From the NCBI GenBank assembly GCA_018645005.1, contig JABGPJ010000058.1, positions 30,965 through 94,964 of the forward strand: a DNA stretch of 64,000 bases, in the 5' to 3' direction. Position 1 is the stretch's first letter. The number at the start of each line of letters is the position of its first letter. Below, piece by piece: positions 24,157 to 62,968 of the stretch. Source of the stretch: Deltaproteobacteria bacterium. Lineage in GTDB: Bacteria; SAR324; XYD2-FULL-50-16. The notes beneath the pieces were generated by a model. The model was not told the DNA's origin. It worked only from the letters and a program-made list of their open reading frames with translations, and ran no database searches. The position numbers were made by a program, and so were the translations under genes.

Positions 24157-27100
24157 ATGAAGCATTTTTTCGATCAAGCTACCGCATTATCTGCTACTGA
24201 AAAGTCTCAGATACTGGATACTGCTCGACAAGAATTGAAAAAGAATCCTATGAACTTCAATGAAATGTCGACCCAGCAGTTATTGCTCTGCATCAACGCC
24301 AGCGCTTCGAATCATTATATTCCCACGGGGATGGAGAGTCTGATCACGACTCATATTATACCCTTAAATCAAAATATCGACAAACATGTACATTCGAGCA
24401 TTAAAGAACTACTCCTTGAAACAACCAATGACCTACTAGGGTATCTGCTGGAAAATATCCAGACAAAGGAAATCCATCAGTATTTCGACCTGATCTTCAA
24501 TCTTGAAAACCGATATCAGTTCGACCCCTTGCTGGTCGCACATTTTTCTTATGATGAACTGGTCGATTACCTTCAGGATTTTTTAAAGGCTTCGGTGGTT
24601 GATGACATTGATCGAAGCGTCGAAATTTTCGACGACCGTCAACCCAAGTCGTGGAAAACACTGACAAAGCTTGCAGATTTGGAAAGTGTTGATACCAGTA
24701 TTAAAATTCCTGCAATTATCGAGCGACCGTTTTTTTCCGATATCCATTTTAACATCACCAAACAGGGCCGAGCAACGTTGATCAAAAGCACTTTTGGTCA
24801 ACTGAAATCTGTGCAGCCGTATTTCAGTAAAACTAAGGCCCCAACCGGTGAATTGTTTAGCGCCAAGAACAAGGTATTTCTGAAATGGCGGGATATTCAT
24901 CAGTTCAAACTAGGATCCACGCAATCCAAATCTTTTCTGGGGGTTTCCGTCAAGGGTGAGTTTGTTGCGGCAACAAAGCTGATATCACATGATATCGGAT
25001 TAAAAATGATTAGCATTGAGGATATCGACTCATTCAAACTGAGAATTAACAAAAAAGTGGTCGATGTCAGCCCCAAGGAGATTACTCAAATCGAAATCAA
25101 TCTCGACACCCAACAGATGATTATGACCCGGGATGTCACCGAGGATGATTTTCATATCAGCCGGTTTAAGCGTCTCAAATTGAAAAAAGGGGATCAAGTA
25201 GGGCAGATTAACAAGATTGTCTCCTTTAACCGTGGCTCTTCAAATTTCGAGCAGATACAGACCATCTTTGGAACCCGCTATACTGAATGTGAAAAAGCAC
25301 GCAACATACTGAACGCGAGGGGTGAATACGGACTTTTGGGAACCAGGAATATCGCAGCGGGCGATCTGGCCTCTCATCTGGTTTTAACTAGTATGAAACT
25401 GCTCGGCTTTCTTCCGTTCAATATTCAGTGTATCGGATTTAAACCCGAAGATGTTAATAATCCCAAAGTCAGTCAAAGTGAAGCGATCAGCTGGATCAAA
25501 GACGTTCAGAATTCGCTGTCTGAAATTATGGATGTTTCAAAAACGCCCAGTTTTACTGAACACAATTTTTCCCGCCTGACAAAAACAGTGAGGACGATTA
25601 TTAAGCGGGATAATTTGTCGGATATAACTCCCCAGCATCTCGAACAGATTATTGAGGAATTAGAGGGCTTGATTCTGTATATGGATGACTTTTTCAAGTT
25701 GAACATATACCAAAAACTTGAGGACGATCTGGAATGTGAAACCGTCCCGGATCTGGATGAAGAATCTCAGCAGAATACAGACGTTCAAGCCGAAAATGAA
25801 GATCTCAGACTTGATGATCAGGCCAAAAATTTTATTACTGAAAACTACACCTTTTTTGAAAAACGGGATCACATTGAAAGCGTGCTGATTAAAATTGAAA
25901 AAATACTTTTCTATAATAAAAACATCAAGCCGTTTGCTGAAGATTTAAAATACGATCCTGATCTGATCTTATACACCAATTCAAATTCACAACTGCAGAA
26001 TTACCGTTTAAGCTCCTACCCATCCGTTTCAACGTCAAAAGTGCTTGACACCAAAACGCTGGAATTCAAAAACGAAGGTGAAGAGCTGCGATTCATTAGA
26101 TTCATGCGAGCATTCACACAGAAATGCCATCAAAAAGCACTGGAACTCAACAAAACCTTCCACCATCAGTTCAAACATACGTTATCAGAATTGACCTTTA
26201 TTGCAGATGAAAAACTCATGCAACTGAAGGACGAACTGGCATTTCTGGAGATTCCTGATAATAAGGAAGCCGCTTACCAAACACTTTTTGAAAAAATCAC
26301 TGCGCTCTACCATCAACACCTCAAAGATAAGCAGGAGAATATCGATAACCTCGAGAAAGAATATACCGAGATCAAAGCCAGATATGAGCAATTCAAGTCG
26401 GATCTGGAAAGGCTTCTTGACACACAATACACCGAAGAGGAACTCGGTGCGGTTCTGTCGCAAATGCCTGAGCAACTGGAGACGATGAAGCAGGAGATAC
26501 TTTCTCAGCACAAAACAAGACTTGCAGAGACATCCCCCGTTTTCAACGCCTATTTGAAGCTCTATAACGCCTCTATCAATTATTTTAAAAAGATCCTCAA
26601 GTACTCAAACCTTTTTCTTAAAGCGCTGTGGGTTCATAGGAATAAAGCGGCCTTTCAAGAGGTAAAATTACAGACAGTGACTTTCTTTTCAATGGACACG
26701 GATGTAATCCTGCTCAAGGTTAAAGAGTTTGAAAATTTTCAACATGATGAAAATAAGGAAAAACGGATTCAACAGGAAATCCACAATCTGTCGCAGAAAA
26801 TTAAATCTTCTTTGATCGAGATGAGTAAAATCCCGGTGAAAGGCTTATTTCAAGACAAGAACAGGGATATGGGAGATCTGACCACTTATCTCACATACTA
26901 CAAACGGGAAACCGATTCTCTTTGCTCACTAATCAAACAATTGCACCCGACCTATCAGCGACTCAGTCAACTACAGAATCTGCTTTTCAAAAAGCAGGAA
27001 GAACTGGTGTCCAGTAAACTGGAAAAGGCAAAAAATGATTTACGGATTCAAATTTCGAAAATGATTTGTAACAACCCCGAGTGTCATGCGGAAATTGATG

Positions 27101-28149
27101 ATTTGGAACGAAAATCGGAGAAGGTACCCAAGGAGATAAAGGATGAACTGGGCGATCTGCGTGGGAAACTCGTAGAATCTGTAAATCATTTCAAAACGAT
27201 TACAGCGCCTGTCAATCTCGAAAAAATCCTGGACTACGAAACCCTGTTTGCTCAGGCAGACAACAGGCATCAAATCAACGAAATATCAAAGGAGTTGGTC
27301 AATTTTACACAGGGACTAACCGCCATTGGGCAAGAAAAAGAGGGCGAAATTGAAGACCTGAACTATCTGTCATCCCAGGAGGAAAACCTTGAGCAAGTCG
27401 CAATGTCCAAGGCGTTGCCGTCAACAAGAATACTGCTGAAGAACAATTATATTCCAATGATTGAGAGAGAGAAAAAGATGCTTCTGCGGGCCAATCAGTT
27501 TCTCTCGGAAATCATCTCTAATGAAAAAGCAATTAACCAGGTTCTGGTTTCAACATTTTTTCATAAACGATTTGGTGTATATCAATTCATTAATGGAACG
27601 TACTGTCTAGATATTACAGCCGGGGCTAAAGATCATACAGAGAAGAACATATACAATGCTTTCATGCTGATAGCAGAACGTCTGGTCAAAGCTTGCTCAG
27701 GAGTTGTACTTCCGGGAACGCAGGTGAGCTTGAAGAAGGTGGAAGTCAAAGGCATTCCAGATTTGAGAAATCTGATTTCTCAAATCTGGCAAGGACATGT
27801 TGATGACCGGTTTATTCTACTACCGTCATCTCTTTCCTTGGAGGAGGCATTTGAACTCTGTGAGTATAAAGATCTGATCTGTCAAAAAAATCCCAAATCA
27901 CAGAAATCGAAGAATTCGTTGATTTTAATTTACGTCCACAAGATTGCTTTTGAAGCGATCGAAAGATCACCTGAATTAAAAATAAAATATAATCAGGCGA
28001 TTCTGAGTAATATCTTTATCAATGTAGACGGGGTGGAGATATTCAACAATCGTGATTCGATCTATGATGCCTGCATCAGGGAAACTTTCGGAAAATGTCA
28101 CGACAAGCAAGCAGACCAAATCATGCATAATTTTCTGTTTGCCAGTTAA
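24157..28149 (+). CDS. Giant (1330 aa) cytoplasmic protein of unknown function, coiled-coil-rich
   Basis: Uninterrupted 3993-nt ORF with no signal peptide or TM segment. The central ~600 aa is heptad-like and K/E/Q/L-rich. I found no Walker A, HxH, DxD or other catalytic motif by eye. Confidence 0.75.
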   Translation: MKHFFDQATALSATEKSQILDTARQELKKNPMNFNEMSTQQLLLCINASASNHYIPTGMESLITTHIIPLNQNIDKHVHSSIKELLLETTNDLLGYLLENIQTKEIHQYFDLIFNLENRYQFDPLLVAHFSYDELVDYLQDFLKASVVDDIDRSVEIFDDRQPKSWKTLTKLADLESVDTSIKIPAIIERPFFSDIHFNITKQGRATLIKSTFGQLKSVQPYFSKTKAPTGELFSAKNKVFLKWRDIHQFKLGSTQSKSFLGVSVKGEFVAATKLISHDIGLKMISIEDIDSFKLRINKKVVDVSPKEITQIEINLDTQQMIMTRDVTEDDFHISRFKRLKLKKGDQVGQINKIVSFNRGSSNFEQIQTIFGTRYTECEKARNILNARGEYGLLGTRNIAAGDLASHLVLTSMKLLGFLPFNIQCIGFKPEDVNNPKVSQSEAISWIKDVQNSLSEIMDVSKTPSFTEHNFSRLTKTVRTIIKRDNLSDITPQHLEQIIEELEGLILYMDDFFKLNIYQKLEDDLECETVPDLDEESQQNTDVQAENEDLRLDDQAKNFITENYTFFEKRDHIESVLIKIEKILFYNKNIKPFAEDLKYDPDLILYTNSNSQLQNYRLSSYPSVSTSKVLDTKTLEFKNEGEELRFIRFMRAFTQKCHQKALELNKTFHHQFKHTLSELTFIADEKLMQLKDELAFLEIPDNKEAAYQTLFEKITALYHQHLKDKQENIDNLEKEYTEIKARYEQFKSDLERLLDTQYTEEELGAVLSQMPEQLETMKQEILSQHKTRLAETSPVFNAYLKLYNASINYFKKILKYSNLFLKALWVHRNKAAFQEVKLQTVTFFSMDTDVILLKVKEFENFQHDENKEKRIQQEIHNLSQKIKSSLIEMSKIPVKGLFQDKNRDMGDLTTYLTYYKRETDSLCSLIKQLHPTYQRLSQLQNLLFKKQEELVSSKLEKAKNDLRIQISKMICNNPECHAEIDDLERKSEKVPKEIKDELGDLRGKLVESVNHFKTITAPVNLEKILDYETLFAQADNRHQINEISKELVNFTQGLTAIGQEKEGEIEDLNYLSSQEENLEQVAMSKALPSTRILLKNNYIPMIEREKKMLLRANQFLSEIISNEKAINQVLVSTFFHKRFGVYQFINGTYCLDITAGAKDHTEKNIYNAFMLIAERLVKACSGVVLPGTQVSLKKVEVKGIPDLRNLISQIWQGHVDDRFILLPSSLSLEEAFELCEYKDLICQKNPKSQKSKNSLILIYVHKIAFEAIERSPELKIKYNQAILSNIFINVDGVEIFNNRDSIYDACIRETFGKCHDKQADQIMHNFLFAS

Positions 28150-30890: not shown

Positions 30891-32186
30891 TTACTCAGCG
30901 ATAAAAAGAGGAAAGAGCAGCGATATTTTTGTCCCCCTATTTAAGGCTGAATCGATGAGTATGGTTCCGCCGTGTGAAGCCATTGTTTTATGAGCTATTG
31001 ACAGCCCCAAACCTGTGCCCTGCTCTCTGGTCGTAAAAAAAGGGTCAAACAACCTTTTTTTAACTTCATTCGTCATCCCTTTCCCGGTATCTATGATATT
31101 GATCTCAATCAGCTCCTGGGGCTGATCTTTTAAAATAAAATTGTTGTTAAATCTTTCCAGAATCATCGGATCATCCTCAAGGCGGTTTTCGGTAGACAGA
31201 TGAAGCGTTCCACCCTCCGGCATCGCTTGACACGCATTCACAAAAAGATTGTGAAGAACTTGTTTTAGCAGCTCTTTATTCCCTCTTATCTCTGATCGTT
31301 CTGCATTTAATTCGACTGTGACATCGATATTCTGCTGAAGTGCCGAAAAACGGGCAAAGTCAGCAAATTCAGACAAGAGTGAGTGAGGATCAAGTTTCTC
31401 AAGTACGGCTGGGCGGGGTTTGGTATATTCTAACAAATTGGAAATAATATGATTCATGCTCCGAGTCGCGGAAGTGATGTGTTGTATTAGATCCATTTCG
31501 CTGGAATCTTCGTCGGTATCCATTTTCATCATCGAAAGGAACAACTCAATACTCCCCAGCGGATTTCTGATTTCATGGGCAACCTGCATGGAGATTTCCC
31601 CCATTGCGGTGAGACGATTTTTCCGTTCAGCCTCCTCTTCAAGTCTTTTTAATTGAGTGATATCAATCAGATTTATAATTATACCCTGCTCCTCATTTTC
31701 GTCTGACTTCATCAAGGTGGTCGAACTGTCGATGATGATTTCCGATCTATCTGCTTTGCTGAAAACAAACTGCTGATGATAGTCCTGGTTGATTTTTTCA
31801 AAAGCCTCTTCGTCCAGAACTTCAGGCAAAACAGGGTTCTTCAGTAGTTCGCTAATCGGCTTTCCAATAGCCGATTCTATATCTATCCCTGTAATCGCGA
31901 CTGCGGCACGATTGAATGTCACTACTTTACCCAGCAAATCGGTTACAATCAAGCCATTGGAAAGACTCTGCAACACATTTGTCAATTCCTGGTTCTTAAG
32001 GTGAAGATCATTCTGCAGGGTTTTCATTTTCTTATGCAGGACCTCAATAGTCGGATTGAGGGATTCAATAAACTGACTCCATTCCTGCTGCTGTTTCATA
32101 AAGAAGCGGATTTGATCTTTTTCTTTGTATAGCTCTTTTTGCAGCTCGACAATCTGTTCCTCCTGGGTCATCTTTTTCTTTTCCAA
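30891..32186 (-). CDS. Cytoplasmic PAS-domain sensor histidine kinase (NtrB-like)
   Basis: N-terminal coiled coil, a PAS-like region, H-box HEIRNPLGSI, N-box LHNLFVNACQA, G1 IDTGKGM and G2 GTGLGLSIA. No TM segment. No response regulator is adjacent. Confidence 0.88.
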   Translation of the reverse strand: MEKKKMTQEEQIVELQKELYKEKDQIRFFMKQQQEWSQFIESLNPTIEVLHKKMKTLQNDLHLKNQELTNVLQSLSNGLIVTDLLGKVVTFNRAAVAITGIDIESAIGKPISELLKNPVLPEVLDEEAFEKINQDYHQQFVFSKADRSEIIIDSSTTLMKSDENEEQGIIINLIDITQLKRLEEEAERKNRLTAMGEISMQVAHEIRNPLGSIELFLSMMKMDTDEDSSEMDLIQHITSATRSMNHIISNLLEYTKPRPAVLEKLDPHSLLSEFADFARFSALQQNIDVTVELNAERSEIRGNKELLKQVLHNLFVNACQAMPEGGTLHLSTENRLEDDPMILERFNNNFILKDQPQELIEINIIDTGKGMTNEVKKRLFDPFFTTREQGTGLGLSIAHKTMASHGGTILIDSALNRGTKISLLFPLFIAE

Positions 32187-32423: not shown

Positions 32424-32529
32424 CTAAGGGTCGGCTCATAAATTACTTCACATTCTGTTCGCAAAATGTCCAGTGTTTTGAGGGCTTTTGCAAATAGATT
32501 ATGTGAAGTTATTTATGAACGATCCCTAA
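32424..32529 (-). repeat. 106-nt palindromic repeat, copy A (inverted relative to B and C on the + strand, hence co-oriented with the minus-strand genes flanking it)
   Basis: Its reverse complement aligns to copy C without gaps (98/106 by hand count). Lies between the stop of the 394-aa gene and the start of the histidine kinase gene. Confidence 0.9.
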
Positions 32530-32675: not shown

Positions 32676-33860
32676 TCAGGTTTTTTGCAACCCCTTCATA
32701 TAGGTTCCAATAAATTCTCGAATTTCTTTAATCTGATCGGAACGCATTGTTTTCAGTTCCTTAATGATACCAGTTTGTTTTTCCTTTAAAAGCTGATGTT
32801 CCTTTTCCAATTCAAAGATGGTTTCTTTGTGTGCCTCAACGGTACTTTTCAGCGACTGTATAAGTTTAGCTTCATTTCCTATGATGGTGCCTGTCTTGAC
32901 ACGGTTTCCACCTCCAATCGAAATACGCGCGCTATCTGTAATTTCCTTTTTTCCAAACAGCGCATGCGGCTTAACAACCCCCGTTGTTCTCTTCTTAACA
33001 GAAACTCCAGGCGGTCTTCCACGTCTTTTTTTAGGTGCTTGCGCTTCGGTAATCCGATTATCCTGCGACATGTTTCCATGGGTTTTTGAACCGCCGACCT
33101 GTTCAAGTGCTTTTTTCGAATCCGAGGCAATGTCCAAGCCAATGAATTCCTGAACAACGTCGTCAATCGATACTGCATTCGCTTTTTTCTCTTCCAGTTC
33201 TTTCAACCAAATATTATGGTATATTTCGATTGATTTGATCGGAACATCGGAAAAGGCGGCCTTAATTTGTTCAATACTGGATTCAGGCTTACTGTTGAGA
33301 AATCTGAAAATCACCTCGTACAAGCCACCTTTTTTGACCTTGTCTGTATTTTTCTGTTTTCTTTTCCATCCAGAGAAGTAGCTGTAGATGGAACTCTGTT
33401 TGGCTTCCGGAAACTGTGCATACAGGGTTTCAACAGTGGCATTAATTTCTGTATCAAGGTATGTGAAGACCATCTCTTTCAACTTTCTGGGACTAATGCC
33501 GGTTTTTTTAACGGTATCTTTTTGCCGCGCCTTTTCCTGCTTTTTCGTCCAATATCGATGATACTCACTGACTTTTGCAGGAGGGATTCCGGGCATCGCT
33601 TCGCGCAAATCGGCCAACGATGCCTTTGTTCTTTTATCCAGGTACTTGTATATTTTCCTTTTTATATTCTGCTCTTGATAGTCGTGTCGATTTACGACTT
33701 TCTCCTGCTTATACTCTTTTTTTGCTCTTTTAATAGTTGTCTTGCTCACACCTTTTAATCCTTCCATCTTAGTCAGTGCGTTTTGAGTCAAATCTGCGAA
33801 GTCCACTCCATCCTGGATCAGATCATCTATGGCTTTTTTTACTAAGTTTTTCTTACTCAT
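32676..33860 (-). CDS. Lys-rich protein with four tandem ~50-aa modules, an AT-hook and a C-terminal coiled coil (putative DNA-binding)
   Basis: The four repeats end in KRAKKEYKQEK, EYHRYWTKKQEK, SYFSGWKRKQKN and IYHNIWLKELEEKK. The AT-hook core is KKRRGRPPG (nt 32991..33032). The C-terminal heptads are KETIFELEKEHQLLKEKQ. Confidence 0.7.
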   Translation of the reverse strand: MSKKNLVKKAIDDLIQDGVDFADLTQNALTKMEGLKGVSKTTIKRAKKEYKQEKVVNRHDYQEQNIKRKIYKYLDKRTKASLADLREAMPGIPPAKVSEYHRYWTKKQEKARQKDTVKKTGISPRKLKEMVFTYLDTEINATVETLYAQFPEAKQSSIYSYFSGWKRKQKNTDKVKKGGLYEVIFRFLNSKPESSIEQIKAAFSDVPIKSIEIYHNIWLKELEEKKANAVSIDDVVQEFIGLDIASDSKKALEQVGGSKTHGNMSQDNRITEAQAPKKRRGRPPGVSVKKRTTGVVKPHALFGKKEITDSARISIGGGNRVKTGTIIGNEAKLIQSLKSTVEAHKETIFELEKEHQLLKEKQTGIIKELKTMRSDQIKEIREFIGTYMKGLQKT

Positions 33861-43555: not shown

Positions 43556-45571
43556 ATGAAAAAATTCTTTCAGTTTCTGCACATCATAGTTTTTATCGTT
43601 TGCTTAAGCCCAGCAACGGTATCCGCAGCTAAAAAGAACCGGATTAAGATGAACTTCAATGATGTTGAAGTCATAAGTTTCATAAAAATTATCGGCAAAC
43701 AAACCGGTAGAACCTTTGTATTTAATAGTAAAGTTCTGAAAGGCAAAAGAATCACACTGATATCGAATCAGACATTTTCCTCTAGTGAGGCCTTTAAAAT
43801 TTTCGAATCAGTTCTGAATATCAACAAATTATCAACTATTGAAGAGGGCAAGGTTACACGCATAATCATTTCAAAAGAGGCAAAAAGTACCACCACACCC
43901 ATTTTCAAAAAAAACCTCCGCCTTCATGCAGGCGCATTTGTTACCCGGATAATTCCCGTCAAACACCTGGATGTAAGGACAGTTCGCTCCAATCTTGCTC
44001 CTTTAATTTCTAAAAATTCACTCCTTGTGGCAAACGAGAACGCCAATGTTCTGATTTTAAGAGATACAAAAGAGAATACGGATCGCTTTGCAGATATTGT
44101 CAATTCCATTGATAAAATCGACCATGTGCTCTCGTCCGTTAACCTGGACCTGGTCGCACTCTCACATGCTAACGCCGTAGAAACAGCTGCATTGTTAAGC
44201 AAGGTCTTTGTGCCAAAAGCCAAAAAAGGAGCCGCTAAAAGTGCAATACTGAAGGTTCTGGCGGACAAACGGACAAATAATCTCATCCTCATCGGACATC
44301 CGGCCACCTTGAAAAAAATCAAAAAACTGGTTTTTCAGCTGGATAACAAAATAGAAACAGATGAAGGCAATATCCGTGTTTATACGTTAAAAAATGCAAA
44401 TGCCAAGATAATAGCGGGTGTTCTTCAAAAAATCGTCACTACCCTGAAGAGTGCCAAAAAAAAACAACCTTCTTCCACTCCGTCGACGATCATTCCGGAT
44501 ATCCCATCCAATTCACTGGTAATCTATGCCGATCAGGCCGAGTTTCCAACCTTGGAAAGTGTGATCCGCAAACTGGATATTGAAAGAGCTCAGGTTTTCA
44601 TCCAAGCCCTGATTATGGAGGTCCGTCTGGATAAAAGTCTTGAACTAGGGGTCGAATGGCAAGCAGGTGACCAGATATCATCTGGAGATACAGACGCTTT
44701 TGTTACTGCAGGTGGTGTGGGTGCAACAGGAGCGCCTAAAACATTTGACCAAGTGAAAGGTGCCGGAGCAGCCGGAGCCGTAGTCGGAGTCATTGGTGGT
44801 CCCATAACATTCGGTGGAACAGAATTCAGCACCTTCAATGCGTTCATAAAAGCCATGGAACGGGATACCGAGATCGATATTTTGTCCAATCCGCAAATAC
44901 TGACACTGAACAACGAAGAGGCCGAAATCAAGGTCGGCGAGATCATTCCAACCGTCGGCAGTACCTCGACGGATGCAAACGGAAAAGAAACAATTAGCAT
45001 CCAGTATAAAGAAGTCGGCATTTCCCTTAAAATCACACCACAAATTAATGCCAACGACGCTATTGAACTGAAAATAGATGAAAACTCCAGCAATGTGATT
45101 GAGGGCAAAATTGGAGCATTTGATCAAGGTGCCATCACCACCTTAAACCGTTCTTTAAAAACTAAAGTCGTTGTTAATAACGGTCAGACAATTGTGCTTG
45201 GCGGGTTAATCAGCGATGAAATAACTGAGGTAGAGACCAAAACACCTTGCCTGGGTGATATTCCCATTTTAGGCTGGCTGTTTAAAACACGGAGTACGGG
45301 CACTAAAAAAACAAATCTTCTGATATTCCTGACGCCACACGTCGTACGCGATCAGGATGAACTTGAAAAGGTCAGCGAAAAAGCCAAATCCAAAGTCAAC
45401 AATGCCCGTCAGGGTCGTTTCCGCATCGACGTTTCAAATGAGTTTGGTATCCCTCAGAAGCAGGAGGGAAAAGAAGAAAGTGATAATGAAAGTGAAGAGG
45501 AAGAAAGTGAAAGTGAAGAGGAAGGAACACCCATTGAGAACCCGGAAGCTGAAAATAAAACAGCTGAATAA
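43556..45571 (+). CDS. gspD: GspD-type secretin (type II secretion outer-membrane channel)
   Basis: Signal peptide from the ATG at 43556 (MKKFFQFLHIIVFIVCLSPATVSA). N0 domain NFNDVEVISFIKIIGKQTGRTFVF. Secretin core VVVNNGQTIVLGGLI...TPCLGDIPILGWLFK. Acidic tail EESDNESEEEESESEEEG. Confidence 0.88.
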   Translation: MKKFFQFLHIIVFIVCLSPATVSAAKKNRIKMNFNDVEVISFIKIIGKQTGRTFVFNSKVLKGKRITLISNQTFSSSEAFKIFESVLNINKLSTIEEGKVTRIIISKEAKSTTTPIFKKNLRLHAGAFVTRIIPVKHLDVRTVRSNLAPLISKNSLLVANENANVLILRDTKENTDRFADIVNSIDKIDHVLSSVNLDLVALSHANAVETAALLSKVFVPKAKKGAAKSAILKVLADKRTNNLILIGHPATLKKIKKLVFQLDNKIETDEGNIRVYTLKNANAKIIAGVLQKIVTTLKSAKKKQPSSTPSTIIPDIPSNSLVIYADQAEFPTLESVIRKLDIERAQVFIQALIMEVRLDKSLELGVEWQAGDQISSGDTDAFVTAGGVGATGAPKTFDQVKGAGAAGAVVGVIGGPITFGGTEFSTFNAFIKAMERDTEIDILSNPQILTLNNEEAEIKVGEIIPTVGSTSTDANGKETISIQYKEVGISLKITPQINANDAIELKIDENSSNVIEGKIGAFDQGAITTLNRSLKTKVVVNNGQTIVLGGLISDEITEVETKTPCLGDIPILGWLFKTRSTGTKKTNLLIFLTPHVVRDQDELEKVSEKAKSKVNNARQGRFRIDVSNEFGIPQKQEGKEESDNESEEEESESEEEGTPIENPEAENKTAE

Positions 45572-45615
45572 AGTAATCTCACCCAGCAAAACGATCCTGT
45601 AATCGCAACAAGTTC

Positions 45616-46326
45616 ATGAAAGCCATGATTTTTGCTGCCGGGTTCGGCAAACGTCTCCAACCCTTGACATTTAAAACCCCCAAGGCTTTGGTGAAAGTAA
45701 AAAACCGGCCCATGCTGGATTGGGTGGTTGACAACCTGATTCATCATGGCATTAGCGAAATCATCATCAACACCCATTACCTGCACTCAAAAGTTCACTC
45801 CTATCTCAAGTCCAACCGTTTCTCAGTGCCGATTACAGTTTCTCATGAAGAGATCATACTGGGTACGGGATGTGGATTATACCAAACCCGTCAGTTCTGG
45901 AATGAATCCGATTTTTTCGTCTGCAATGTTGATGTTTTATGTAACGTTGATTTGAAGAAATTTTTCGAATTCCATCGAAACCACGAGGCGACAGTTTCAT
46001 TGGGAGTCAACAACCATCTGTCCAGTTCAATGCTACTCGTGGATGAGGCCGGTTTTCTGGTCGGTAGAAGTGTTGAAGGACAGCAGCAGCTACTCAGAGC
46101 ACCACAGGGAAAGACCTTTGAAGCTGGATTTTGTGGTCTTCATGCCATTTCTCCTGCTTTTTTCTCCGAAGTAACGCCACCCATGTCCTTTTCAATCATC
46201 GATGACTACATGAATCTGCTGAAAACAGGTGGTTCCATAATGACTTGGTCTATTGGAGATGCCTACTGGGAGGATATCGGAACAAAAGAGGCACTGAAAA
46301 AAGCGAATCGTGAATTTCCTGGCTAA
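45616..46326 (+). CDS. Sugar-phosphate nucleotidyltransferase (MurU / mannose-1-P guanylyltransferase-like)
   Basis: N-terminal AAGFGKRLQPLT (GxGxRL) nucleotide-binding loop. 236 aa GT-A-like NTP-transferase fold pattern. Confidence 0.75.
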   Translation: MKAMIFAAGFGKRLQPLTFKTPKALVKVKNRPMLDWVVDNLIHHGISEIIINTHYLHSKVHSYLKSNRFSVPITVSHEEIILGTGCGLYQTRQFWNESDFFVCNVDVLCNVDLKKFFEFHRNHEATVSLGVNNHLSSSMLLVDEAGFLVGRSVEGQQQLLRAPQGKTFEAGFCGLHAISPAFFSEVTPPMSFSIIDDYMNLLKTGGSIMTWSIGDAYWEDIGTKEALKKANREFPG

Positions 46327-46445
46327 AGTATATTACATCGTCAGTGGAGCGAATCTAAACCATAGCCTTATTCAAACAAATCTGTTGCTTTTTTCGAGAA
46401 TCCCGGAATTAATCAGTTTATCTTTAATCAAAGACAATGGTTTTT

Positions 46446-46847
46446 TTACACCTCTTTATCCTTTTTTTCGTTTGTCCCCAGAGGCGTCTCGGAACTTTTG
46501 GTCTCAGAATCTGCATTGGGATCTTGAGAATCCACCTCAGCTTTTTTCGGTGAATCTTTATAGCCCTCTTCTAACGCGTCAGCTGCTGTTTCAAGATAGT
46601 TTTCAAGACTTGAAGACATATTTTTTCTTTTTAAATCTTGCGCCATTTCGGCAAGATCCTTGACTTCTGAACCGGCTACATTTTCAAATTCACTCGTGAC
46701 CGTCGATTTGAATTCATTGGTTGCCTTACGGAATTCGGCCAAACCGCGTCCGATAGCTCTGACGACACCAGGAAGTCTCGACGGACCCAAAACGATCAGG
46801 GCGATCGCGCCAATGATCAGCATTTCCGTCATACCCATATTGAACAT
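46446..46847 (-). CDS. Twin-arginine translocase TatA/TatB-family subunit with long acidic tail
   Basis: [39 protein letters not shown] is the TatA/B TM helix plus amphipathic helix signature. The 133-aa length is between typical TatA and TatB. Confidence 0.85.
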
Positions 46848-46858
46848 TTTCCCTCTCT

Positions 46859-47443
46859 CTATGGTTGTTTGCGACTAAGCGTTTTGAAAAACTTAAGAAA
46901 CGCTTTTTTGCTCCAATTTGTAGGCCCAACCAGCTTGCCCAGAATCCGACCTTTTTTGTCAATTACCACCGTCGTCGGAAGTCCCTTGATGTTTAGCTTC
47001 CCACTAATTTTCTTATCTGTATCCGTCACCACGTCAAAAGTATAGTGTAACTTTTGAATGAAACGATTCACCTTATCTGAATTTTCACCATAATTAACCG
47101 CCAGAATCCGGAAATGTTCCCCTTTCATTTCATGCATCAGTTTTTGCATGTCGGGCATCTCCTTCTGACAGGGATAACACCAAGTAGCCCAGAAGTTTAA
47201 TAAAATGACGTTCTCTCGATTCGAAGAAAACTGCTCTTTTCCCCCGTTCAACAAAGTGTATTCGAAATCTGCTATTGATGCTGGCAAATCCGAAACCTCA
47301 AAATAGTGCTCTTTCAGAAACCTGGAGACATCCTCTGCTGACCGATATTTTTCTGGTTCTGTATCTGGGTCCTTGTTACAACCGGAAATATTTACGGCTA
47401 ATAATATTAGTAAAATAATGTAAGTAACCGAAAAACGGCTCAT
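46859..47443 (-). CDS. TlpA/ResA-like thiol:disulfide oxidoreductase lipoprotein
   Basis: Lipobox from the internal ATG ([22 protein letters not shown]) and thioredoxin motif [13 protein letters not shown]. The ORF track start at 47533 is probably too far upstream. Confidence 0.8.
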
Positions 47444-47554
47444 GAGGTGTTCCTTTATATTATGGCCTATTTTATGGAAGGTCAATTTGTATAAAATTGC
47501 TCTGAGAAATGATTTGAGCCTGAACATTATCAACAGTAATCTGAAGTGATAGGT

Positions 47555-48466
47555 TTATTTCAGTCCAGCCGCATAAAATGTTTCAATTCGAACAGAAATT
47601 TGTTGGCCAAGAAATCGAACCAGCTGGTTCATCTCTGTATCAGACCATGCAACAGCTCTGGTATCGGAAGGTCGACGAGCCAGAGTGTACGCTTGGATCA
47701 GTTTAATTTTCACACCATCGTCTATCAAGCGGGTTACCTGTTCAACATACTTCTGATATTTTTGACTACTATAGATCTCTTCTTGCCACGAAAAAAAGCA
47801 GCTCTGGAGAGTGAGCGGATACTTCCGTCCCACAGCTTTAATATTCTCTATCAGCTTTTTTGCAGAGATTTTGCTCCGGTTTATGGCTCTAAAACTTTGT
47901 TCGTCCCAGAAATCGAATTTGCACCAGATTTCCCCCCTGTTTGCCATCAGATCATCAAGTACCGGTAAGAGGTCAGGACGATTGAGCCTGGATGCATTGG
48001 TAAAGAGAATGATCTTGCATTTATCCAACCTGAATTCTTTCTGTAATTCAATGAGTTTTAATAACAATTGAGGGAGCACCTTGACTGTTGTCGGTTCTCC
48101 ATCTCCAGCGATGGATATGTCTTTTAGTGAAAATCCTTTGTACTTTCCTTCGTTTTTAGCAAAAATCCCCAGCCAGTGGTTCAGTTCTGTCACGATCTGT
48201 CCAACCTCCACTTTCAGGTTGGTTATCTTTTTTTCCCGATCGACCTGACAATATACACATCTGAAACTGCATTTCTTATCCGGATTGAGGTTAATCCCCA
48301 GGGATAATCCACCGGACCTTCTAGAGATCACAGGATAAACAAGTTTCTGATACTCACTCAAACGAGGGTGTTCAGAATATCCAAGGGATATGATGTCATG
48401 CAGCTGTTCAAAATCCTTTTTTGTCATGGATGTGCTTCCAATTATCAAGTACAACAGTTCCAACAA
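47555..48466 (-). CDS. Radical SAM protein (COG0731-like small family)
   Basis: CSFRCVYCQ (CxxxCxxC) cluster motif preceded by SGGLSLGINLNP, and a GDGEPT SAM-binding motif. Alternative start at 48427 (MTKKDF). Confidence 0.75.
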   Translation of the reverse strand: MLELLYLIIGSTSMTKKDFEQLHDIISLGYSEHPRLSEYQKLVYPVISRRSGGLSLGINLNPDKKCSFRCVYCQVDREKKITNLKVEVGQIVTELNHWLGIFAKNEGKYKGFSLKDISIAGDGEPTTVKVLPQLLLKLIELQKEFRLDKCKIILFTNASRLNRPDLLPVLDDLMANRGEIWCKFDFWDEQSFRAINRSKISAKKLIENIKAVGRKYPLTLQSCFFSWQEEIYSSQKYQKYVEQVTRLIDDGVKIKLIQAYTLARRPSDTRAVAWSDTEMNQLVRFLGQQISVRIETFYAAGLK

Positions 48467-48542
48467 TCAGTTGGTTGGCGGGGGATCCCAGTTTAGAAAA
48501 GACATTCTGGTAAACAATGGCAGAGTGAAGATCACAAGTAAT

Positions 48543-49949
48543 TTATTTTAAATAGTGAATCTGCCGCGCTTTTGAACTCATAATCATATCGTTTGTCGAT
48601 GACTCGCGAGGGAGCCTCTGGGATATCTCATGAATAAAATCGACGGCTTTTCTAACCAGATCAGGATTTTCATACACGGATAACTCTTTCACAATCACCT
48701 TGTACAGTGCGGTTTCAGCCTTCATCCGGATAATTGGATCAATATTTTCGGCACTGCTGCGAGACAAAATCTCGTTGAACAATCGTTTTGCCTCTTTTTC
48801 AACTTTCTTTGATGTATCGACCGTCTCTAATATAATCAGGTTCAGGCTTTGCTTGATGGCAGCCATTGACTTTTGGTCCACCCTATCCAAGACAGTGCAT
48901 TCACTCAGGTATTTATTGAGAAGTTCTTCCGCTTTTTGGTTCATCTCCTTGTTTTCTGCAACGGCCGCTGCTTCAACAGCCCGCTGATTAAGAATTTCGA
49001 AGACAGCCTGCTCTGTCTTCTTGTGCAGTGCGGACAACTCCATCGAATCGATAAATTCCGACAGAAGATTTTCAACTTTTCCCTGGACTATTGGATTCCC
49101 CTGTTCACAGGCAAACGCCTGAATCTCTTTATTGATGTGTTTGACAACTGTATTTGTCGATTCAGGTTGAATGATCGAGTTGTCGAGATGCTTGACCAGG
49201 TTTTGGGACAAATCTTCGGATTTATTTTTTACAAATTCATTGTCTTTTTGACAGGATATGTCGACCATCAGACCATTAACCAGCTTTCTGATCGTTTTTT
49301 CCGTATCCTGGGTGACCAATTCTGAATTTAAGCTTTGCAGGTACTCACGAAAAATTATTTCTGTTTGGGATAAAACCGTACTGTTCTTATCCTGGCAAGC
49401 CCATTGGACGCCCTTCTTATTGATAACAGATATAATGGACTGTTTGCTTCCTGAGCTGAACGTCTCGTGGGAAAGCTGGCTGAGGTAGTCCCGCAACAAC
49501 TCAATCGCCTTTTCCCGGACTTCATCATTTGATGGGTTGCGGGCGTTTAAGACCACTTGTTGATTAATGTGCGAAACAATTGCACCTTCACTCTTTTGGG
49601 TTATTACCGTCTGGTTAATTTTACTCACAAATTCCGCTGCCAGTTCCCCGACTTTTTGTTGAATTTCCGGACTTGATCCATTTTGTGCAAACTTAAGCAG
49701 CGAGGTATTGATATCCTCAAGCATTTTGGCATTCACATCTTTTCGGACCACTTCGATTCCAAATTTTTCAACACTTGCCAGAAGCAGTTCATGGGTTTTC
49801 TTTTTCACTACTTCTTCTATTTTTTTCTGATCAGACTTTGTTAATGAGATCTCCTTTGCAGCTCTATGAAACATACCAATAATTTTAAAGGTACGAATAA
49901 ATGACTGCACCGGATCCAGAAACAAACGATCAAAGATTGATTTAATCAT
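48543..49949 (-). CDS. Alpha-helical protein built from at least 7 tandem 48-residue repeats, unknown function
   Basis: Hand-parsed 48-aa units, e.g. SNDEVREKAIELLRDYLSQLSHETFSSGSKQSIISVINKKGVQWACQD / DNEFVKNKSEDLSQNLVKHLDNSIIQPESTNTVVKHINKEIQAFACEQ / GNPIVQGKVENLLSEFIDSMELSALHKKTEQAVFEILNQRAVEAAAVA. Confidence 0.65.
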   Translation of the reverse strand: MIKSIFDRLFLDPVQSFIRTFKIIGMFHRAAKEISLTKSDQKKIEEVVKKKTHELLLASVEKFGIEVVRKDVNAKMLEDINTSLLKFAQNGSSPEIQQKVGELAAEFVSKINQTVITQKSEGAIVSHINQQVVLNARNPSNDEVREKAIELLRDYLSQLSHETFSSGSKQSIISVINKKGVQWACQDKNSTVLSQTEIIFREYLQSLNSELVTQDTEKTIRKLVNGLMVDISCQKDNEFVKNKSEDLSQNLVKHLDNSIIQPESTNTVVKHINKEIQAFACEQGNPIVQGKVENLLSEFIDSMELSALHKKTEQAVFEILNQRAVEAAAVAENKEMNQKAEELLNKYLSECTVLDRVDQKSMAAIKQSLNLIILETVDTSKKVEKEAKRLFNEILSRSSAENIDPIIRMKAETALYKVIVKELSVYENPDLVRKAVDFIHEISQRLPRESSTNDMIMSSKARQIHYLK

Positions 49950-49960
49950 TTTTTCAATTT

Positions 49961-50152
49961 TTAGCTGTTGAATTTTGATATATGAGGTCGCCTTTTTTCA
50001 CCAATTTCGAAAATCTCAAACCTGAATCGTTTTCGAGATTGGCCGATTTTAATTAAGACTACTATTTCACTGCCACCTGACTCATATATACTGTGGCTTA
50101 GTGCTTTTCTGCGTATTTCTTCCTTAAACGGAAAATTGGGGGTGGTTGGCAT
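49961..50152 (-). CDS. Hypothetical small protein (63 aa)
   Basis: ORF ending 11 nt before the start of the repeat-protein gene on the same strand. No motif recognised. Confidence 0.3.
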   Translation of the reverse strand: MPTTPNFPFKEEIRRKALSHSIYESGGSEIVVLIKIGQSRKRFRFEIFEIGEKRRPHISKFNS

Positions 50153-50347
50153 TGAAAATGGCTCTCGACAACAATAATCGTGACCTATCAGGAGTTGTGA
50201 GATATATGTGTCAATCTAACGTTTCTCTTAGTCTTTCGAAGCCCAAAGCTAATGTCAAGCAGTCCTTATTGAATTCCGTGTTCAAGAATATTTTTTGACA
50301 TACTCGGACCCTCGTCACAAAAACCAATACTATATTTCAGATGGGTA

Positions 50348-50578
50348 CAGCAATGTCCGGTTTTTGTAGAAAGCTGAATGATGAAACCTGGATCGAGCTT
50401 ATAAGGATTTATTAGATTTTCTTAGTTTAGCGTAGCGAAAATAAGCCTTGTTTGAGCGAGGCAGGCGAGTTTGGCGGTTTTTCGTGAAGCAAACTTAGAA
50501 AATCTTTAAATCCTTATGCGCAAAGACGGATTTTATCATTGAGTTTTTGTTTAGCAAAAACCTAACCGGACATTGCTG
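50348..50578. mobile_element. MITE-like non-autonomous element (231 bp) with 15-bp perfect terminal inverted repeats, flanked by a 9-bp direct duplication
   Basis: Left TIR CAGCAATGTCCGGTT (50348..50362) and right TIR AACCGGACATTGCTG (50564..50578). AGATGGGTA occurs immediately outside both ends (50339..50347 and 50579..50587). Internal subterminal blocks are also inverted (ATAAGGATTTA..AGATTTTCT.AGTTT). No ORF. Confidence 0.7.
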
Positions 50579-54169: not shown

Positions 54170-54226
54170 TTTCTGTTATTTACCTCCTTTTCATTTTTAA
54201 GAATTATAAATGACTCCCAGCGGCTG

Positions 54227-55162
54227 ATGGTATCAAAAACACAAACCATTCACATATATTTATTGACCTATAATCGCCCCCAATATTTCCTTCAGGCGCT
54301 GCATTCGGTACTCAATCAGAATTTTGAAGATTTCCTGGTCATCGTTTCAGACAACTCAACCAATGATGAAACTGAAAAACTGGTTCAAACCATTCATCAC
54401 CCAAAACTACAATACATAAAAAGAACTCCCAGCACTCCCTCTTTAGAACATTATAGAACAGTTCTATCCGAAGTTTCATCCGAATATTTTATGATCTTTC
54501 ATGATGATGATATTATGGATCCGGATTGTTTAAGCATTCTGTCATCTGATCTCGACGCATCACCAACTGCCGCTGCAGTCGGTGGAAACGCGGAAATATT
54601 CTGGGATACAAAAAACCGTTTCAAACGACGTTTTTTCAAACCAGCGAAACAAAATCGTGTCTTGCAACATCCAAATGAGCTCGCTAAAATATACCTTACA
54701 TTTGAAGGGCTTGCTCCCTTCCCATCCTATATGTACCGCAAAAGCCTTATCAATGGACTGAATTTAGATCCTGAAGAAGGTGGCCAGGGTGCTGATGTTT
54801 CTTTTCTATTAAAAGTTCTGCAAAGAGGGGAAATTATTTGGGAAAACCGCTGTATCATGCAGTACCGAAAGCATCATTCTCAAGACAGCCAGGGCCTGGA
54901 CATCAAAGATTTGCTACAACTTTTAAATCACATTCATAAGAATACGGACGTATCAAGGAAATCATTCGAATCAAATTTTTTTCGATATAAGTCATGGGCA
55001 GGAGTACTTAAAAGCCAGTTCTTTCAAACTGGAGGCAAGTTGACTGACAACCGAATGAAAATGATATATCGAGCAATTTTCTGCTTTTCGCCATTCGATA
55101 TCTTTTTAAAACTATTTATTTGGAGAATCCGTGCAATCATAGCAGGAGTCAAATCCCGCTGA
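54227..55162 (+). CDS. Family 2 glycosyltransferase
   Basis: YLLTYNRPQYF..., VIVSDNSTNDET and FHDDDIM (DxD) motifs of the GT-A / GT2 fold. Confidence 0.8.
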   Translation: MVSKTQTIHIYLLTYNRPQYFLQALHSVLNQNFEDFLVIVSDNSTNDETEKLVQTIHHPKLQYIKRTPSTPSLEHYRTVLSEVSSEYFMIFHDDDIMDPDCLSILSSDLDASPTAAAVGGNAEIFWDTKNRFKRRFFKPAKQNRVLQHPNELAKIYLTFEGLAPFPSYMYRKSLINGLNLDPEEGGQGADVSFLLKVLQRGEIIWENRCIMQYRKHHSQDSQGLDIKDLLQLLNHIHKNTDVSRKSFESNFFRYKSWAGVLKSQFFQTGGKLTDNRMKMIYRAIFCFSPFDIFLKLFIWRIRAIIAGVKSR

Positions 55163-55208
55163 TGCCATTCACGCCTTTGATGAAACGATAGTGGGGACTA
55201 CTCAATTG

Positions 55209-55314
55209 TTAGGGATCGTACAAAAATAACTTGGCATAATTTGTCCGCAAAAGTCCCATAAAGACTGGACATTTTGCAGACAAAATGCCAAGTAATTTCT
55301 GAGCCAACCCTTAT
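55209..55314 (+). repeat. 106-nt palindromic repeat, copy B
   Basis: Ungapped alignment to copy C at 84/106 by hand count. Same long-hairpin architecture with compensated arm substitutions. Ends 56 nt upstream of the CgeB-like gene. Confidence 0.85.
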
Positions 55315-55370
55315 CCAGTTCTAATAGTTCACTTAACTCCGGCTATCGCCCATAAAAGTAAAATAAGCTT

Positions 55371-56453
55371 ATGAAAGTACTATATGTGGACTTACAGTAC
55401 GACTATGGTGTTAAGGAAAGAGGGTTAAACTATATCGGCCAGGATGGTTTTAAAAAAAACATTCAACGATTAAACCATGACCTGGACACCTTCTATTATG
55501 ATCGTTATCTAAACAACATCGATCAACTTCAGATAGATATAATTAAAAAGGCAAAAGAATTTGGACCTGATTTAATATTTTTCCAGCTCTTCTCCAATCA
55601 GTTTAGTCTAGAAACGCTAGATTATTTGAAAGGGACGTATCAGACAATAGCATGGTTTGGAGACGATACCTGGAGATTTGATTCATACACCAAAAATTTT
55701 GCAAATCATTTTACCTGGTGTATCACAACGGATAAATTTTCTATTCCTAAATACAAAATAATCGGTCAAAAAAATGTGATCCTCAGTCAATGGGCAGCAA
55801 TTGACTCTCATAAAATTCCCCAAAGAAAAAACAATTATCTGTACGATGCCTCATTTGTAGGGGGAATAAGTCCATATAGAAAATGGTTTATTGAAACGCT
55901 GCAAAAAACAGGACTAGAAATAAGCACTTTTGGTAATGGTTGGAAAGGTGGAAAAGTCACTCATGATGAAATGAATGAAATCTTTGTCAATTCCAAAATA
56001 AACCTGAATATCTCGAATAGTGAAAGTTATGACCTCAGATATCTTTTACATATACCCTTTAGATTTCGTAATGACTCATCAAACAATATCAAGGAAAGAC
56101 TTAAACCCTTAGCAGCAAAAATCAGGGAATGGCGAAAGATCATGATAAAAACCAAAGGAAGTAAAACTTACGGACAGATTAAAGCCAGAAACTTCGAAAT
56201 TCCATATTTCTCTGGCTTTCAACTGACAAATTATTTTCCTGGAATTGAAGATTATTTTGACATCGGAAGTGAAATCGTTTGTTACAGCGATGTTGATGAA
56301 GCTGAATTACTTATTCGATATTATCTTGACAATGAAAAGGAAAGAGAAGAGATCAAAAATAAATCCCATAGACTTGCTGTTGAGAAACATGGTTATTTGA
56401 ATAGATTAGAACCAATCTTGAACCAAGTTTTTAATAACCGGAAAAGGAAGTAA
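55371..56453 (+). CDS. CgeB-family / DUF3880-type glycosyltransferase-like protein
   Basis: C-terminal block KARNFEIPYFSGFQLTNYFPGIEDYFDIGSEIVCYSDVDEAELLIRYYLDNEKEREEIKNKSHRLAVEKHGYLNRL matches the Glyco_trans_1_2/CgeB pattern as I recall it. Confidence 0.65.
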   Translation: MKVLYVDLQYDYGVKERGLNYIGQDGFKKNIQRLNHDLDTFYYDRYLNNIDQLQIDIIKKAKEFGPDLIFFQLFSNQFSLETLDYLKGTYQTIAWFGDDTWRFDSYTKNFANHFTWCITTDKFSIPKYKIIGQKNVILSQWAAIDSHKIPQRKNNYLYDASFVGGISPYRKWFIETLQKTGLEISTFGNGWKGGKVTHDEMNEIFVNSKINLNISNSESYDLRYLLHIPFRFRNDSSNNIKERLKPLAAKIREWRKIMIKTKGSKTYGQIKARNFEIPYFSGFQLTNYFPGIEDYFDIGSEIVCYSDVDEAELLIRYYLDNEKEREEIKNKSHRLAVEKHGYLNRLEPILNQVFNNRKRK

Positions 56454-58578: not shown

Positions 58579-58757
58579 TCCTATTACAGAATCACTTCCT
58601 GAATTTGAAGTTTTCTTAATTAAGGCGAAAAGTTTGGTGAAACTGATCATTTTTTCCTCAATGATCATGGATTATCCCAGAACCGCTTATTCATTTCTGT
58701 CTGATTGAATTCATGTTTCAATTGACAGATTAGATTAATGAAAAAATCGGTATTAAA

Positions 58758-62847: not shown

Positions 62848-62953
62848 TTAGGGATCGATCATAAATAACTTCACATAATCTATTTGCAAAAGTCCCTAAA
62901 GCACTGGACATTTTGCAAACAGAATGTGAGCTAATTTATGAGCCGACCCTTAG
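62848..62953 (+). repeat. 106-nt palindromic repeat, copy C
   Basis: TTAGGGATCGATCATAAATAACTTCACATAATCTATTTGCAAAAGTCCCTAAAGCACTGGACATTTTGCAAACAGAATGTGAGCTAATTTATGAGCCGACCCTTAG. 98/106 identical to the reverse complement of copy A. Ends 15 nt before the GT10 start codon. Confidence 0.9.
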
Positions 62954-62968
62954 AACTAGCTGAGCCAC

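Follow-up and report, generated by a model that had tools for sequence, protein, structure and literature searches.

The maize elements PIF and mPIF duplicate the trinucleotide TTA within the motif CWCTTAGWG. Duplications of 3 bp typify the PIF/Harbinger elements and the related IS5 elements (PMC4122938), and the IS1031 group recognises three nucleotides (PMC2516522). In prokaryotes, miniature transposons (MITEs) are defined by terminal inverted repeats, direct repeats, AT-rich intergenic targets and stable stem-loops, and one such group, the Correia elements, is cut by RNase III (PMC10969869). Small size, a lack of coding capacity and multiple copies belong to the definition as well (PMC10969869, PMC3184786). 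A REP family is defined by a GTAG or CGTC head (PMC3733652).

We analysed a 64-kb stretch of DNA (the window), whose proteins carry the NCBI label 'Deltaproteobacteria bacterium' and in which a first-pass annotation had reported three copies of a palindromic repeat: copy A at 32424-32529 on the minus strand, copy B at 55209-55314 and copy C at 62848-62953. These positions and strands were borne out, and the identities counted at the time proved exact over ungapped alignments (98/106 between A and C, 84/106 between B and C); copies A and B are identical at 85/106 positions, also ungapped. A unit of exactly 106 nt had been proposed. The ungapped alignment over that length stands, but the shared unit is 105 nt, made up of a 3-nt duplicated target, a 99-nt core (GGGATCG...CGACCC) and a 3-nt target; the 106th base is flanking DNA, G in copies A and C and T in copy B. 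The sequences flanking the three copies are unrelated to one another, and no fourth copy was found in the 64-kb window by blastn with a word size of 7. The parts of each copy are as follows.

32428..32526, minus strand: copy A, 99-bp core of the putative MITE, which in the minus-strand reading begins GGGATCGTTCAT and ends TGAGCCGACCC
32527..32529, minus strand: copy A, left (5') target-site duplication, TTA
32425..32427, minus strand: copy A, right (3') target-site duplication, TTA
32507..32526, minus strand: copy A, left terminal inverted repeat, about 20 bp
32428..32447, minus strand: copy A, right terminal inverted repeat, about 20 bp
55212..55310, plus strand: copy B, 99-bp core, CTTGGCAT...ATGCCAAG, belonging to the 'GG/CC' subfamily
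55209..55211, plus strand: copy B, left target-site duplication, TTA
55311..55313, plus strand: copy B, right target-site duplication, TTA
55212..55231, plus strand: copy B, left terminal inverted repeat
55291..55310, plus strand: copy B, right terminal inverted repeat
62851..62949, plus strand: copy C, 99-bp core
62848..62850, plus strand: copy C, left target-site duplication, TTA
62950..62952, plus strand: copy C, right target-site duplication, TTA
62851..62870, plus strand: copy C, left terminal inverted repeat
62930..62949, plus strand: copy C, right terminal inverted repeat
62883..62919, plus strand: copy C, conserved apical stem-loop, TTTGCAAAAGTCC, a 10-nt loop and GGACATTTTGCAAA

Copy A lies between a 394-aa ORF without a Pfam family (32676-33860, minus strand) and a PAS histidine kinase gene (30891-32186, minus strand). 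Copies B and C lie inside a co-directional glycosyltransferase/polysaccharide gene cluster, where B is flanked by a GT2 glycosyltransferase gene (54227-55162, plus strand) and a Glyco_trans_1_2 gene (55371-56453, plus strand), and C by a Polysacc_synt flippase gene (61279-62790, plus strand) and a GT10 fucosyltransferase-like gene (start at 62969, plus strand).

We consider it probable, at roughly 85%, that all three repeats belong to one family of non-autonomous DNA transposons (MITEs) with a 99-bp non-coding core. The family is new, is of a well-known kind and is not a dedicated RNA gene. The first-pass annotation had favoured an RNA-level element (a UTR or intercistronic stem-loop, or an sRNA) and had kept a MITE-like DNA element as the alternative. 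It is the alternative that fits the matched 3-bp duplications, the terminal inverted repeats, the many unrelated intergenic sites and the end-only variants described below; the anatomy of the element and its random orientation speak against the favoured reading.

Relatives were collected by pattern scans and by nhmmer. An exact pattern taken from the conserved apical stem, run against one genome per species, matched 23 loci. Two unclassified MAGs, 'bacterium isolate Mix_mud16' (JBFFHJ01) and 'bacterium isolate GMC6.concoct.212' (JAOZRE01), account for 21 of the 23; one further locus is from a Desulfobacula MAG, and the last is a chance match in a Planctomycetota MAG. Collecting copies by nhmmer, as the first-pass annotation had proposed, gave 36 further copies across 22 genomic loci (the two unclassified MAGs and the Desulfobacula MAG). 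Metagenomes, scanned with the element end sequence, added at least 186 copies in at least 118 loci. In total, the family numbers more than 220 relatives and, after same-site duplicates were removed, at least 144 distinct insertion sites. Besides many metagenomes, no fewer than three separate organisms or bins harbour the family, and the flanks are unrelated every time. Such wide dispersal of numerous copies over unrelated sites is a mark of MITEs.

The population to which the window belongs is widely sampled: among the contigs retrieved, contigs identical at 99.9-100% come from four NCBI MAGs and several ENA assemblies, and 11 of 11 near-identical contigs contain every copy that they span. The element had no match in 72,556 plasmids (blastn), and its central pattern had none among viral contigs; three viral matches to an 18-mer from the element end were due to chance, being coding-like sequence without similarity to the family. 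No earlier description of the family was found, and a literature search with its characteristic 11-15-mers gave nothing relevant.

The trinucleotides that flank the copies are matched. At the 144 sites among the matches listed, the two flanks were TTA/TTA in 70 cases, TAA/TAA in 18 and TAA/TTA in 3, and TTA/TAA was never seen (Fisher p = 2.8e-16). Other matched flanks are also present (ATA/ATA, TGA/TGA and AAA/AAA), as are versions decayed by one base. The metagenome pattern demanded TWA beside the right end of the matched copy and left the left flank free, so that the duplication test rests on the left flank. An extension of the element's palindrome would not explain these flanks, because it predicts TTA...TAA, which is essentially absent among the matches listed. 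Nor is the flank inherited with a subfamily. The nearest relatives of TAA/TAA copies, at 95-97 of 99 positions among the matches listed, are TTA/TTA or TGA/TGA copies, and because such near-identical copies (95-97%) differ in their flank, the flank is made at each insertion. The target logo for the 144 sites among the matches listed has C81/T44 at position -4 and G74/A44 at position +4. The insertion target is the palindrome 5'-Y-TWA-R-3', of which the central TWA is duplicated; the site of copy C, C-TTA-G, matches this consensus. We rejected a TA duplication of the IS630/Tc1-like kind, under which the element ends would have to be asymmetric in both flank classes; a duplicated 3-bp TWA accounts for the two classes simply. 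Direct repeats at the flanks are a defining trait of MITEs, and a 3-bp TWA duplication in a palindromic target is one of IS5 (IS1031-like) and PIF-Harbinger elements.

The terminal 20 bp or so at both ends form imperfect terminal inverted repeats, as expected of a MITE, with the consensus GGGTCGGCTCAAAAATTA. One end reads GGGTCG(G/A)CTCAAAAAT(T/A)A, and the other is an imperfect complement of it. The left end has drifted in the majority of copies, to GGGATCGTT/ACAAAAATAA, and in most the outer helix is paired. The element is non-coding and small, within the limit of about 500 bp for a MITE. The 99-bp core leaves no room for an ORF, and the variants range from 37 to about 260 bp among the matches listed.

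End-to-end lengths, among the matches listed, peak at 90-99 bp (109 pairs, the main form of 99 bp) and at 130-139 bp (33 pairs, the main form with a nested module). The same ends of about 20 bp also enclose other interiors, at 37, 66, 78, 126-127 and 135-140 nt, and they are the sole part common to all variants among the matches listed. The 37-nt variant (locus L107) consists of the ends only, and the variants of 66 and 78 nt (loci L057, L067 and L080) of the ends and an unrelated small hairpin. Every alternative interior seen is itself a hairpin.

The nested module is a hairpin of 36-38 nt, GCAACGTGTTTCC-loop-GGAAACACTTG, placed about 20 nt from one element end and present in about a quarter of the family copies among the matches listed. 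It occurs on either arm, as two or three tandem copies in loci L052, L102 and L106, and once within another module (locus L117), and two versions of its stem exist, complementary to each other. The module was never found outside an element in about 1 Mb of sequence at the family loci. Entire elements are also found side by side: three tandem copies with one common TTA lie at 5298-5607 of locus L007 and two in locus L012, and composite or nested copies are found at loci L097, L105 and L117. These last are not clean insertion footprints, because each lacks a portion of the host copy.

Intergenic, palindromic and numerous copies, with an apical stem-loop conserved family-wide as strongly as the element ends, would also be seen if the repeat were a DNA structure of the REP/BIME type, recruited by the host as a gyrase, IHF or nucleoid-protein site or as a cruciform, and spread by recombination. 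The target-site duplications and the defined YTWAR target argue against this, as do the spread over at least three organisms or bins and many metagenomes with flanks that are always unrelated, and the variants that retain only the ends. We regard this reading as extremely improbable.

The first-pass annotation had drawn attention to the orientation of the repeats, which is the same for all three window copies relative to the transcription of the flanking genes. This co-orientation holds in the window and not in the family. When neighbour orientation was taken from crude ORF calls, 33 of the 64 copies between co-directional ORFs were oriented with their neighbours and 31 against them (p = 0.90, among the matches listed), and the remaining contexts were balanced, with 17 convergent and 17 divergent among the matches listed. 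The shared orientation of the three window copies (a 1-in-4 event) is a coincidence. By the same crude calls, the 38 copies in the window and the genome-scan loci are intergenic, barring small overlaps with ORF ends, with one exception flagged inside an ORF call (locus L002, 4573-4678); among the matches listed, 5 of 144 sites lie inside such a call.

In line with the earlier failure to recognise a known Rfam family, the whole window gave no match at the gathering thresholds. At E <= 10, the only hits over the element were generic miRNA-precursor hairpins, which scored 15-22 bits where the thresholds are 58-140. In the sense orientation, no consensus site resembling a promoter or a terminator was present at the copies, and a role as an intrinsic terminator or promoter was rejected for that reason.

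Each copy folds as one hairpin over its whole length, as had been described from the window, with an MFE of -38.3 to -41.5 kcal/mol. Dinucleotide shuffles of the copies reached about -15 kcal/mol (z = -7.1 to -8.6), and 0 of 200 shuffles folded as well. Because gaps in the outer arms of a first alignment confined RNAalifold to the apical stem, pairs were counted on an explicit structure, in which 89.2% of the cells of the full hairpin are paired over 79 ungapped copies among the matches listed. The compensatory pairs 25/81, 26/80 and 37/71, first seen among the three window copies, are real in this alignment and divide the family into two large subfamilies: among the 79 copies, pair 25/81 is GC in 38 and CG in 37, pair 26/80 is GC in 37 and AU in 31, and pair 37/71 is CG in 34 and UA in 26. 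Several pairs have more than one alternative, and pair 38/70 occurs as UA, GC, CG and AU. Chimeric copies also occur, in which a left arm from one subfamily is joined to a right arm from the other (L115:11968, L133:7545).

Changes on both sides of a pair were compared with controls. We observed 15 pairs changed on both sides, compared with 9.3 ± 1.9 in column shuffles (2 of 500 as high) and 6-13 with slid partners; for cells changed on both sides, 130 were observed, compared with 51.5 ± 10.9 in column shuffles (0 of 500) and 8-44 with slid partners. In a control that preserves sequence relatedness, the 3' partner was swapped for another stem column with the same consensus base. Such mock partners averaged 7.3 pairs and 15.4 cells (p <= 0.001). 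With the three deep subfamily pairs taken out, 12 pairs and 36 cells remained, against 5.1 and 7.7 for mock partners (p about 0.002). The compensatory signal that the first-pass annotation had reported is thus significant across the 79 copies (among the matches listed), and since the compensatory pattern extends beyond the window copies, we conclude that the foldback is maintained.

The two strands do not fold equally well. The reverse complement of the orientation used in the first-pass annotation folds better in 25 of 33 copies, with a mean of -40.6 as against -37.0 kcal/mol (Wilcoxon p = 0.001). An A.C mismatch on one strand is a G.U pair on the other. On the strand originally read, 116 cells are A.C mismatches and 36 are G.U, with the consensus U11.G95 wobble set aside; counted as parsimony events, the ratio of A.C to G.U is 66 to 30. 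Raw transition counts in the inner stem are balanced, with 40 G>A and 40 C>T. We grade the wobble asymmetry as weak, because raw transitions are near symmetric and the copies are not independent; the same near symmetry led us to reject a strand-specific mutation bias as its cause. If the asymmetry held genome-wide, one particular strand would have to fold. Taken together, the compensatory foldback, the complementary stem versions of the nested module, the all-hairpin interiors and the weak bias towards wobble-compatible mismatches on one strand could mean that one defined strand must fold while single-stranded, either as an ssDNA or cruciform intermediate of a transposition that makes target-site duplications or as an element RNA co-opted by the host. 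We think this unlikely; if true, it would be an unusual mechanism for an element with terminal inverted repeats and target-site duplications.

Significant covariation alone does not imply an RNA function. The first-pass annotation had expected random orientation to go together with unsupported covariation if the RNA reading were wrong; the two came apart here, with significant covariation alongside random orientation. An RNA element whose fold is under selection by the host, be it a cis-regulatory or intercistronic stem-loop, an element for processing or stability, or an sRNA, would be expected to show a very stable hairpin (z about -8) and compensatory substitutions such as those seen, and copies B and C stand where read-through transcription is expected. 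It would not be expected, however, to be oriented at random among its neighbours, nor to keep its ends unchanged while unrelated hairpins replace its interior, and the matched, variable 3-bp duplications at at least 144 unrelated sites indicate insertion rather than descent with neighbouring genes. One strand does fold somewhat better, but in all three window copies it is the opposite of the strand transcribed with the neighbours, and neither an Rfam family (beyond the sub-threshold hairpins) nor a promoter-like or terminator-like site is tied to the copies. Since the copies are oriented and placed at random, have an interior that can be replaced and lack such sites, a structured RNA as the primary explanation is disfavoured, and we hold it to be very improbable.

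Returning to the MITE reading, we searched for the source of a transposase. In about 1 Mb of DNA flanking the copies, no autonomous element with the family ends was found, and this includes a resident insertion sequence with matching ends, which the first-pass annotation had named as the sign of a plain MITE. At the family loci, there were no solo ends, no terminal inverted repeat pairs 300-4000 bp apart except adjacent MITEs, and no repeated segment of 400-4000 bp. No transposase was found among the family-locus ORFs shortlisted by a Y-R-E-K motif and then by Pfam, or among the genes adjoining copies A, B and C. From the 3-bp TWA duplication and the palindromic target, and by analogy with elements that share them, the transposase would be of the IS5 (IS1031-like)/PIF-Harbinger type. 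Because no transposase was found, the family is likened to that group rather than filed in it.

Look-ups with two flanking proteins gave only filled contigs, 99.9-100% identical, and among these no precise empty site was found; queries of joined flanks against all family loci gave matches caused solely by neighbouring copies, with none that spanned the junction. The tandem copies with a single TWA and the composite or nested copies are indirect signs of movement.

That a DDE parent was not found would suit another type of mobile element, of the REPIN/RAYT kind or derived from IS200/IS605, in which ssDNA is mobilised by a tyrosine (HUH) transposase that recognises a hairpin on one strand. Compensatory changes in hairpins of about 100 nt and tandem clusters of near-identical copies have been described for REPINs (PMC3116915), and the cluster at locus L007 resembles the latter; the strand asymmetry between wobbles and A.C mismatches would also fit, although the equal counts of G>A and C>T in the inner stem make it weak. 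The flanks tell against this reading. Matched 3-bp duplications that differ even among near-identical copies arise from a staggered double-strand cut, and an HUH insertion beside a fixed tetranucleotide would not yield them. Moreover, the ends (GGGTCGGCTCAAAAATTA) have neither the internal palindrome of a REP nor a GTAG or CGTC head, and no small transposase gene of about 150 aa lies beside any copy at the family loci, the one 149-aa neighbour tested being a MarR regulator. We consider a REPIN/RAYT-type or IS200/IS605-derived origin very improbable.

For the MITE that we favour, we propose that a DDE transposase, supplied in trans, would recognise the element ends; insertion occurs at Y-TWA-R and duplicates TWA. 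Among the points against this reading, a cut-and-paste DDE mechanism alone does not account for compensatory evolution across the whole interior. The foldback is probably kept through DNA replication or through the way in which the element itself propagates. By one route, copies would be selected among themselves for competence in transposition, for example through a cruciform or foldback that joins ends 99 bp apart. By another, templated 'palindrome-correcting' mutation would act within the quasi-palindrome; the correction of quasi-palindromes by templated mutation during replication is established in E. coli. Effects at the RNA level may be a further cause. Maintenance by a host RNA function seems less likely, given that the copies are oriented and placed at random with respect to genes. 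Where copies lie in an operon, as B and C do, a read-through mRNA would carry the hairpin, with about 40 paired positions, and RNase III cleavage or altered mRNA stability, effects documented for Correia and ERIC elements, could arise as a side effect.

For the annotation of genomes of the uncultivated marine 'Deltaproteobacteria bacterium', these results mean that the repeat is to be treated as a mobile element and not as an RNA gene; the repeat also occurs densely in related MAGs, whose assembly it will affect. The family adds to the bacterial MITEs one with a Tourist/PIF-type TWA duplication and a palindromic YTWAR target, and it should be useful for tracing active transposases in unculturable lineages. 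Its more than 140 independent insertions, its 99-bp alignment free of gaps and its significant compensatory changes also make it a data set for asking why miniature transposons keep their foldback, whether through RNA effects, templated mutation or the mechanics of transposition. Its nested hairpin modules and its compensatory evolution, which has statistical support, lend it a modest extra interest. In the window itself, an operon for polysaccharide biosynthesis holds two copies, and a long hairpin there could affect how the mRNA is processed.

Among the systems with which the family can be compared, the small dispersed repeats (SDR) of Nostoc, tens of nucleotides long, are reportedly inserted within larger hairpin-forming repeats. 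The 36-38-nt module nested in a hairpin repeat may resemble them; sequences, sizes and hosts differ.

With the Correia/NEMIS elements of Neisseria, RUP of pneumococcus, ERIC of enterobacteria and Nezha of Nostocales, the family shares a size of about 100-170 bp, an intergenic location and a multicopy state (PMC3184786, PMC10969869), as well as terminal inverted repeats, direct repeats and transcripts that fold as long stable hairpins. It is set apart from all four, going by their published descriptions, by its ends, targets, parents and host lineage. Correia and RUP duplicate TA and have IS630-like parents, and Nezha is 130-170 bp long, belongs to Nostocales and has ends in common with ISNpu3 (PMC3184786). 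An identity with Nezha, or a cyanobacterial origin, was rejected, since the family sits in MAGs that carry the label 'Deltaproteobacteria bacterium' or simply 'bacterium', and both size and duplication differ from the description.

Like REPINs, the family is a hairpin-forming miniature mobile unit of about 100 nt in which compensatory changes are common and near-identical copies cluster in tandem (PMC3116915). REPINs, however, consist of two inverted REPs, each a small palindrome with a conserved head, are linked to RAYT and make no target duplication, whereas the present family has plain terminal inverted repeats and a matched 3-bp duplication.

The Tourist-like MITEs of eukaryotes, mobilised by PIF/Harbinger transposases, and their bacterial relatives, the IS5 elements of IS1031 type, offer a close parallel. 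The present family differs from them in its host, an uncultivated marine bacterium, in an inverted repeat that spans the whole element rather than the termini only, and in that no transposase was found near any copy, so that the likeness is one of duplication and target alone. In those two respects it agrees with them: a 3-bp duplication of TTA or TAA lies within a longer palindromic target, here YTWAR. As in those elements, the ends start with GG(G), and the element is short, AT-rich, non-coding and bounded by terminal inverted repeats.

Two of the three window copies of the MITE sit in a polysaccharide-biosynthesis cluster (window ~54200-64000) that extends on in L024-L031 (L-numbers denote loci or contigs from the genome and metagenome scans or from the window's own population) and that comprises GT2, Glyco_trans_1_2, epimerase, DegT aminotransferase, flippase and GT10 genes and two B12-binding radical-SAM genes. 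L024, an ENA contig of that population, agrees with the window at 99.98% from position 50427 on. Upstream of that point, gene content differs between L024:1-6200, which carries TetR, PIN/MazE, hybrid histidine kinase and Zip transporter genes, and window 44227-50426. The two part ways ~350 bp upstream of ligA, at a strain-level rearrangement or island boundary. Copy A lies directly downstream of a 394-aa ORF (window 32676-33860, minus strand). No Pfam family was found at E <= 0.001 for this ORF or for the 1330-aa ORF at window 24157-28149 (plus strand); at E <= 0.01, the 394-aa ORF gave only two sub-threshold matches, to KfrA_N and Gig2-like, both under the Pfam gathering cut-offs.

Family-wide, 25 of 33 copies fold better on the reverse-complement strand, as do all three copies in the window. 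On the strand read in the first-pass annotation, A.C mismatches outnumbered G.U pairs in the alignment of 79 family copies. Raw transition counts are near-symmetric, so the strand asymmetry is weak.

In two chimeric copies, the left arm belongs to one of the two major subfamilies (GG/TCCGC type or CA/TTTGC type) and the right arm to the other, and as a result the hairpins are mismatched exactly at the covarying pairs. These chimeras are evidence that the subfamilies have undergone recombination or template switching. Adjacent units of the tandem arrays have a single TTA in common; such arrays could have arisen when a new copy inserted into the duplicated target of one already resident, or through unequal recombination. 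In the composites, a host copy has lost its loop and half of its apical stem, and one or two further copies, of a subfamily with ends GGTCGGCTAAAAGGCTAATTCAC, take their place. The composite junction is identical in L105 and L117, which suggests that the arrangement has itself spread as a unit.

Chimeric, tandem and composite copies
L115:11968-12072, chimera
L133:7545-7649, chimera
L007:5298-5607, tandem array of three copies, period 102 bp, two units identical
L012:440-643, tandem array of two copies
L117:1400-1760, composite
L105:3480-3750, composite
L097:2960-3200, composite

Minimal elements keep the ~20-bp ends of the family and the flanking TWA. Some contain, besides the ends, only a nested module, a hairpin of 36-38 nt (GCAACGTGTTTCC-loop-GGAAACACTTG), of which a variant with GATTCC/GGAATC represents a compensatory change. 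Among the matches listed, about one in four family copies carries the module, nested ~20 nt from one element end; the 137-bp class accounts for at least 21 unique sites and the 126-140-bp size classes for at least 16 more (for example L035:731, L119:582 and L082:7284). A second small hairpin, AAGGCAA(A/T)GCG.AGCTTTGCC, is unrelated to the first module and occupies the identical arm position. With two unrelated hairpins at one position, the inner edge of the right TIR looks like a hot spot for hairpin-module acquisition.

Minimal elements and hairpin modules
L107:~459-495, minimal element, 37 nt, ends only
L057:~270-335, minimal element of 66 nt that carries a different, GC-rich hairpin
L067:2100-2180 and L080:~475-552, minimal elements at two different sites, 78 nt, ends and nested module only
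L008:3286-3422, nested module
L052:11865-12000, nested module
L102 and L106, nested module, one and the same array
L117:~1690-1740, nested module
L053:909-1034, second hairpin
L147:880-1005, second hairpin
L122:1557-1683, second hairpin

The nested module was found on either arm, as two or three tandem copies and, once, within another module; none was found outside TIR-bounded elements in about 1 Mb. The module behaves like a still smaller insertion unit, recalling the SDR elements of Nostoc.
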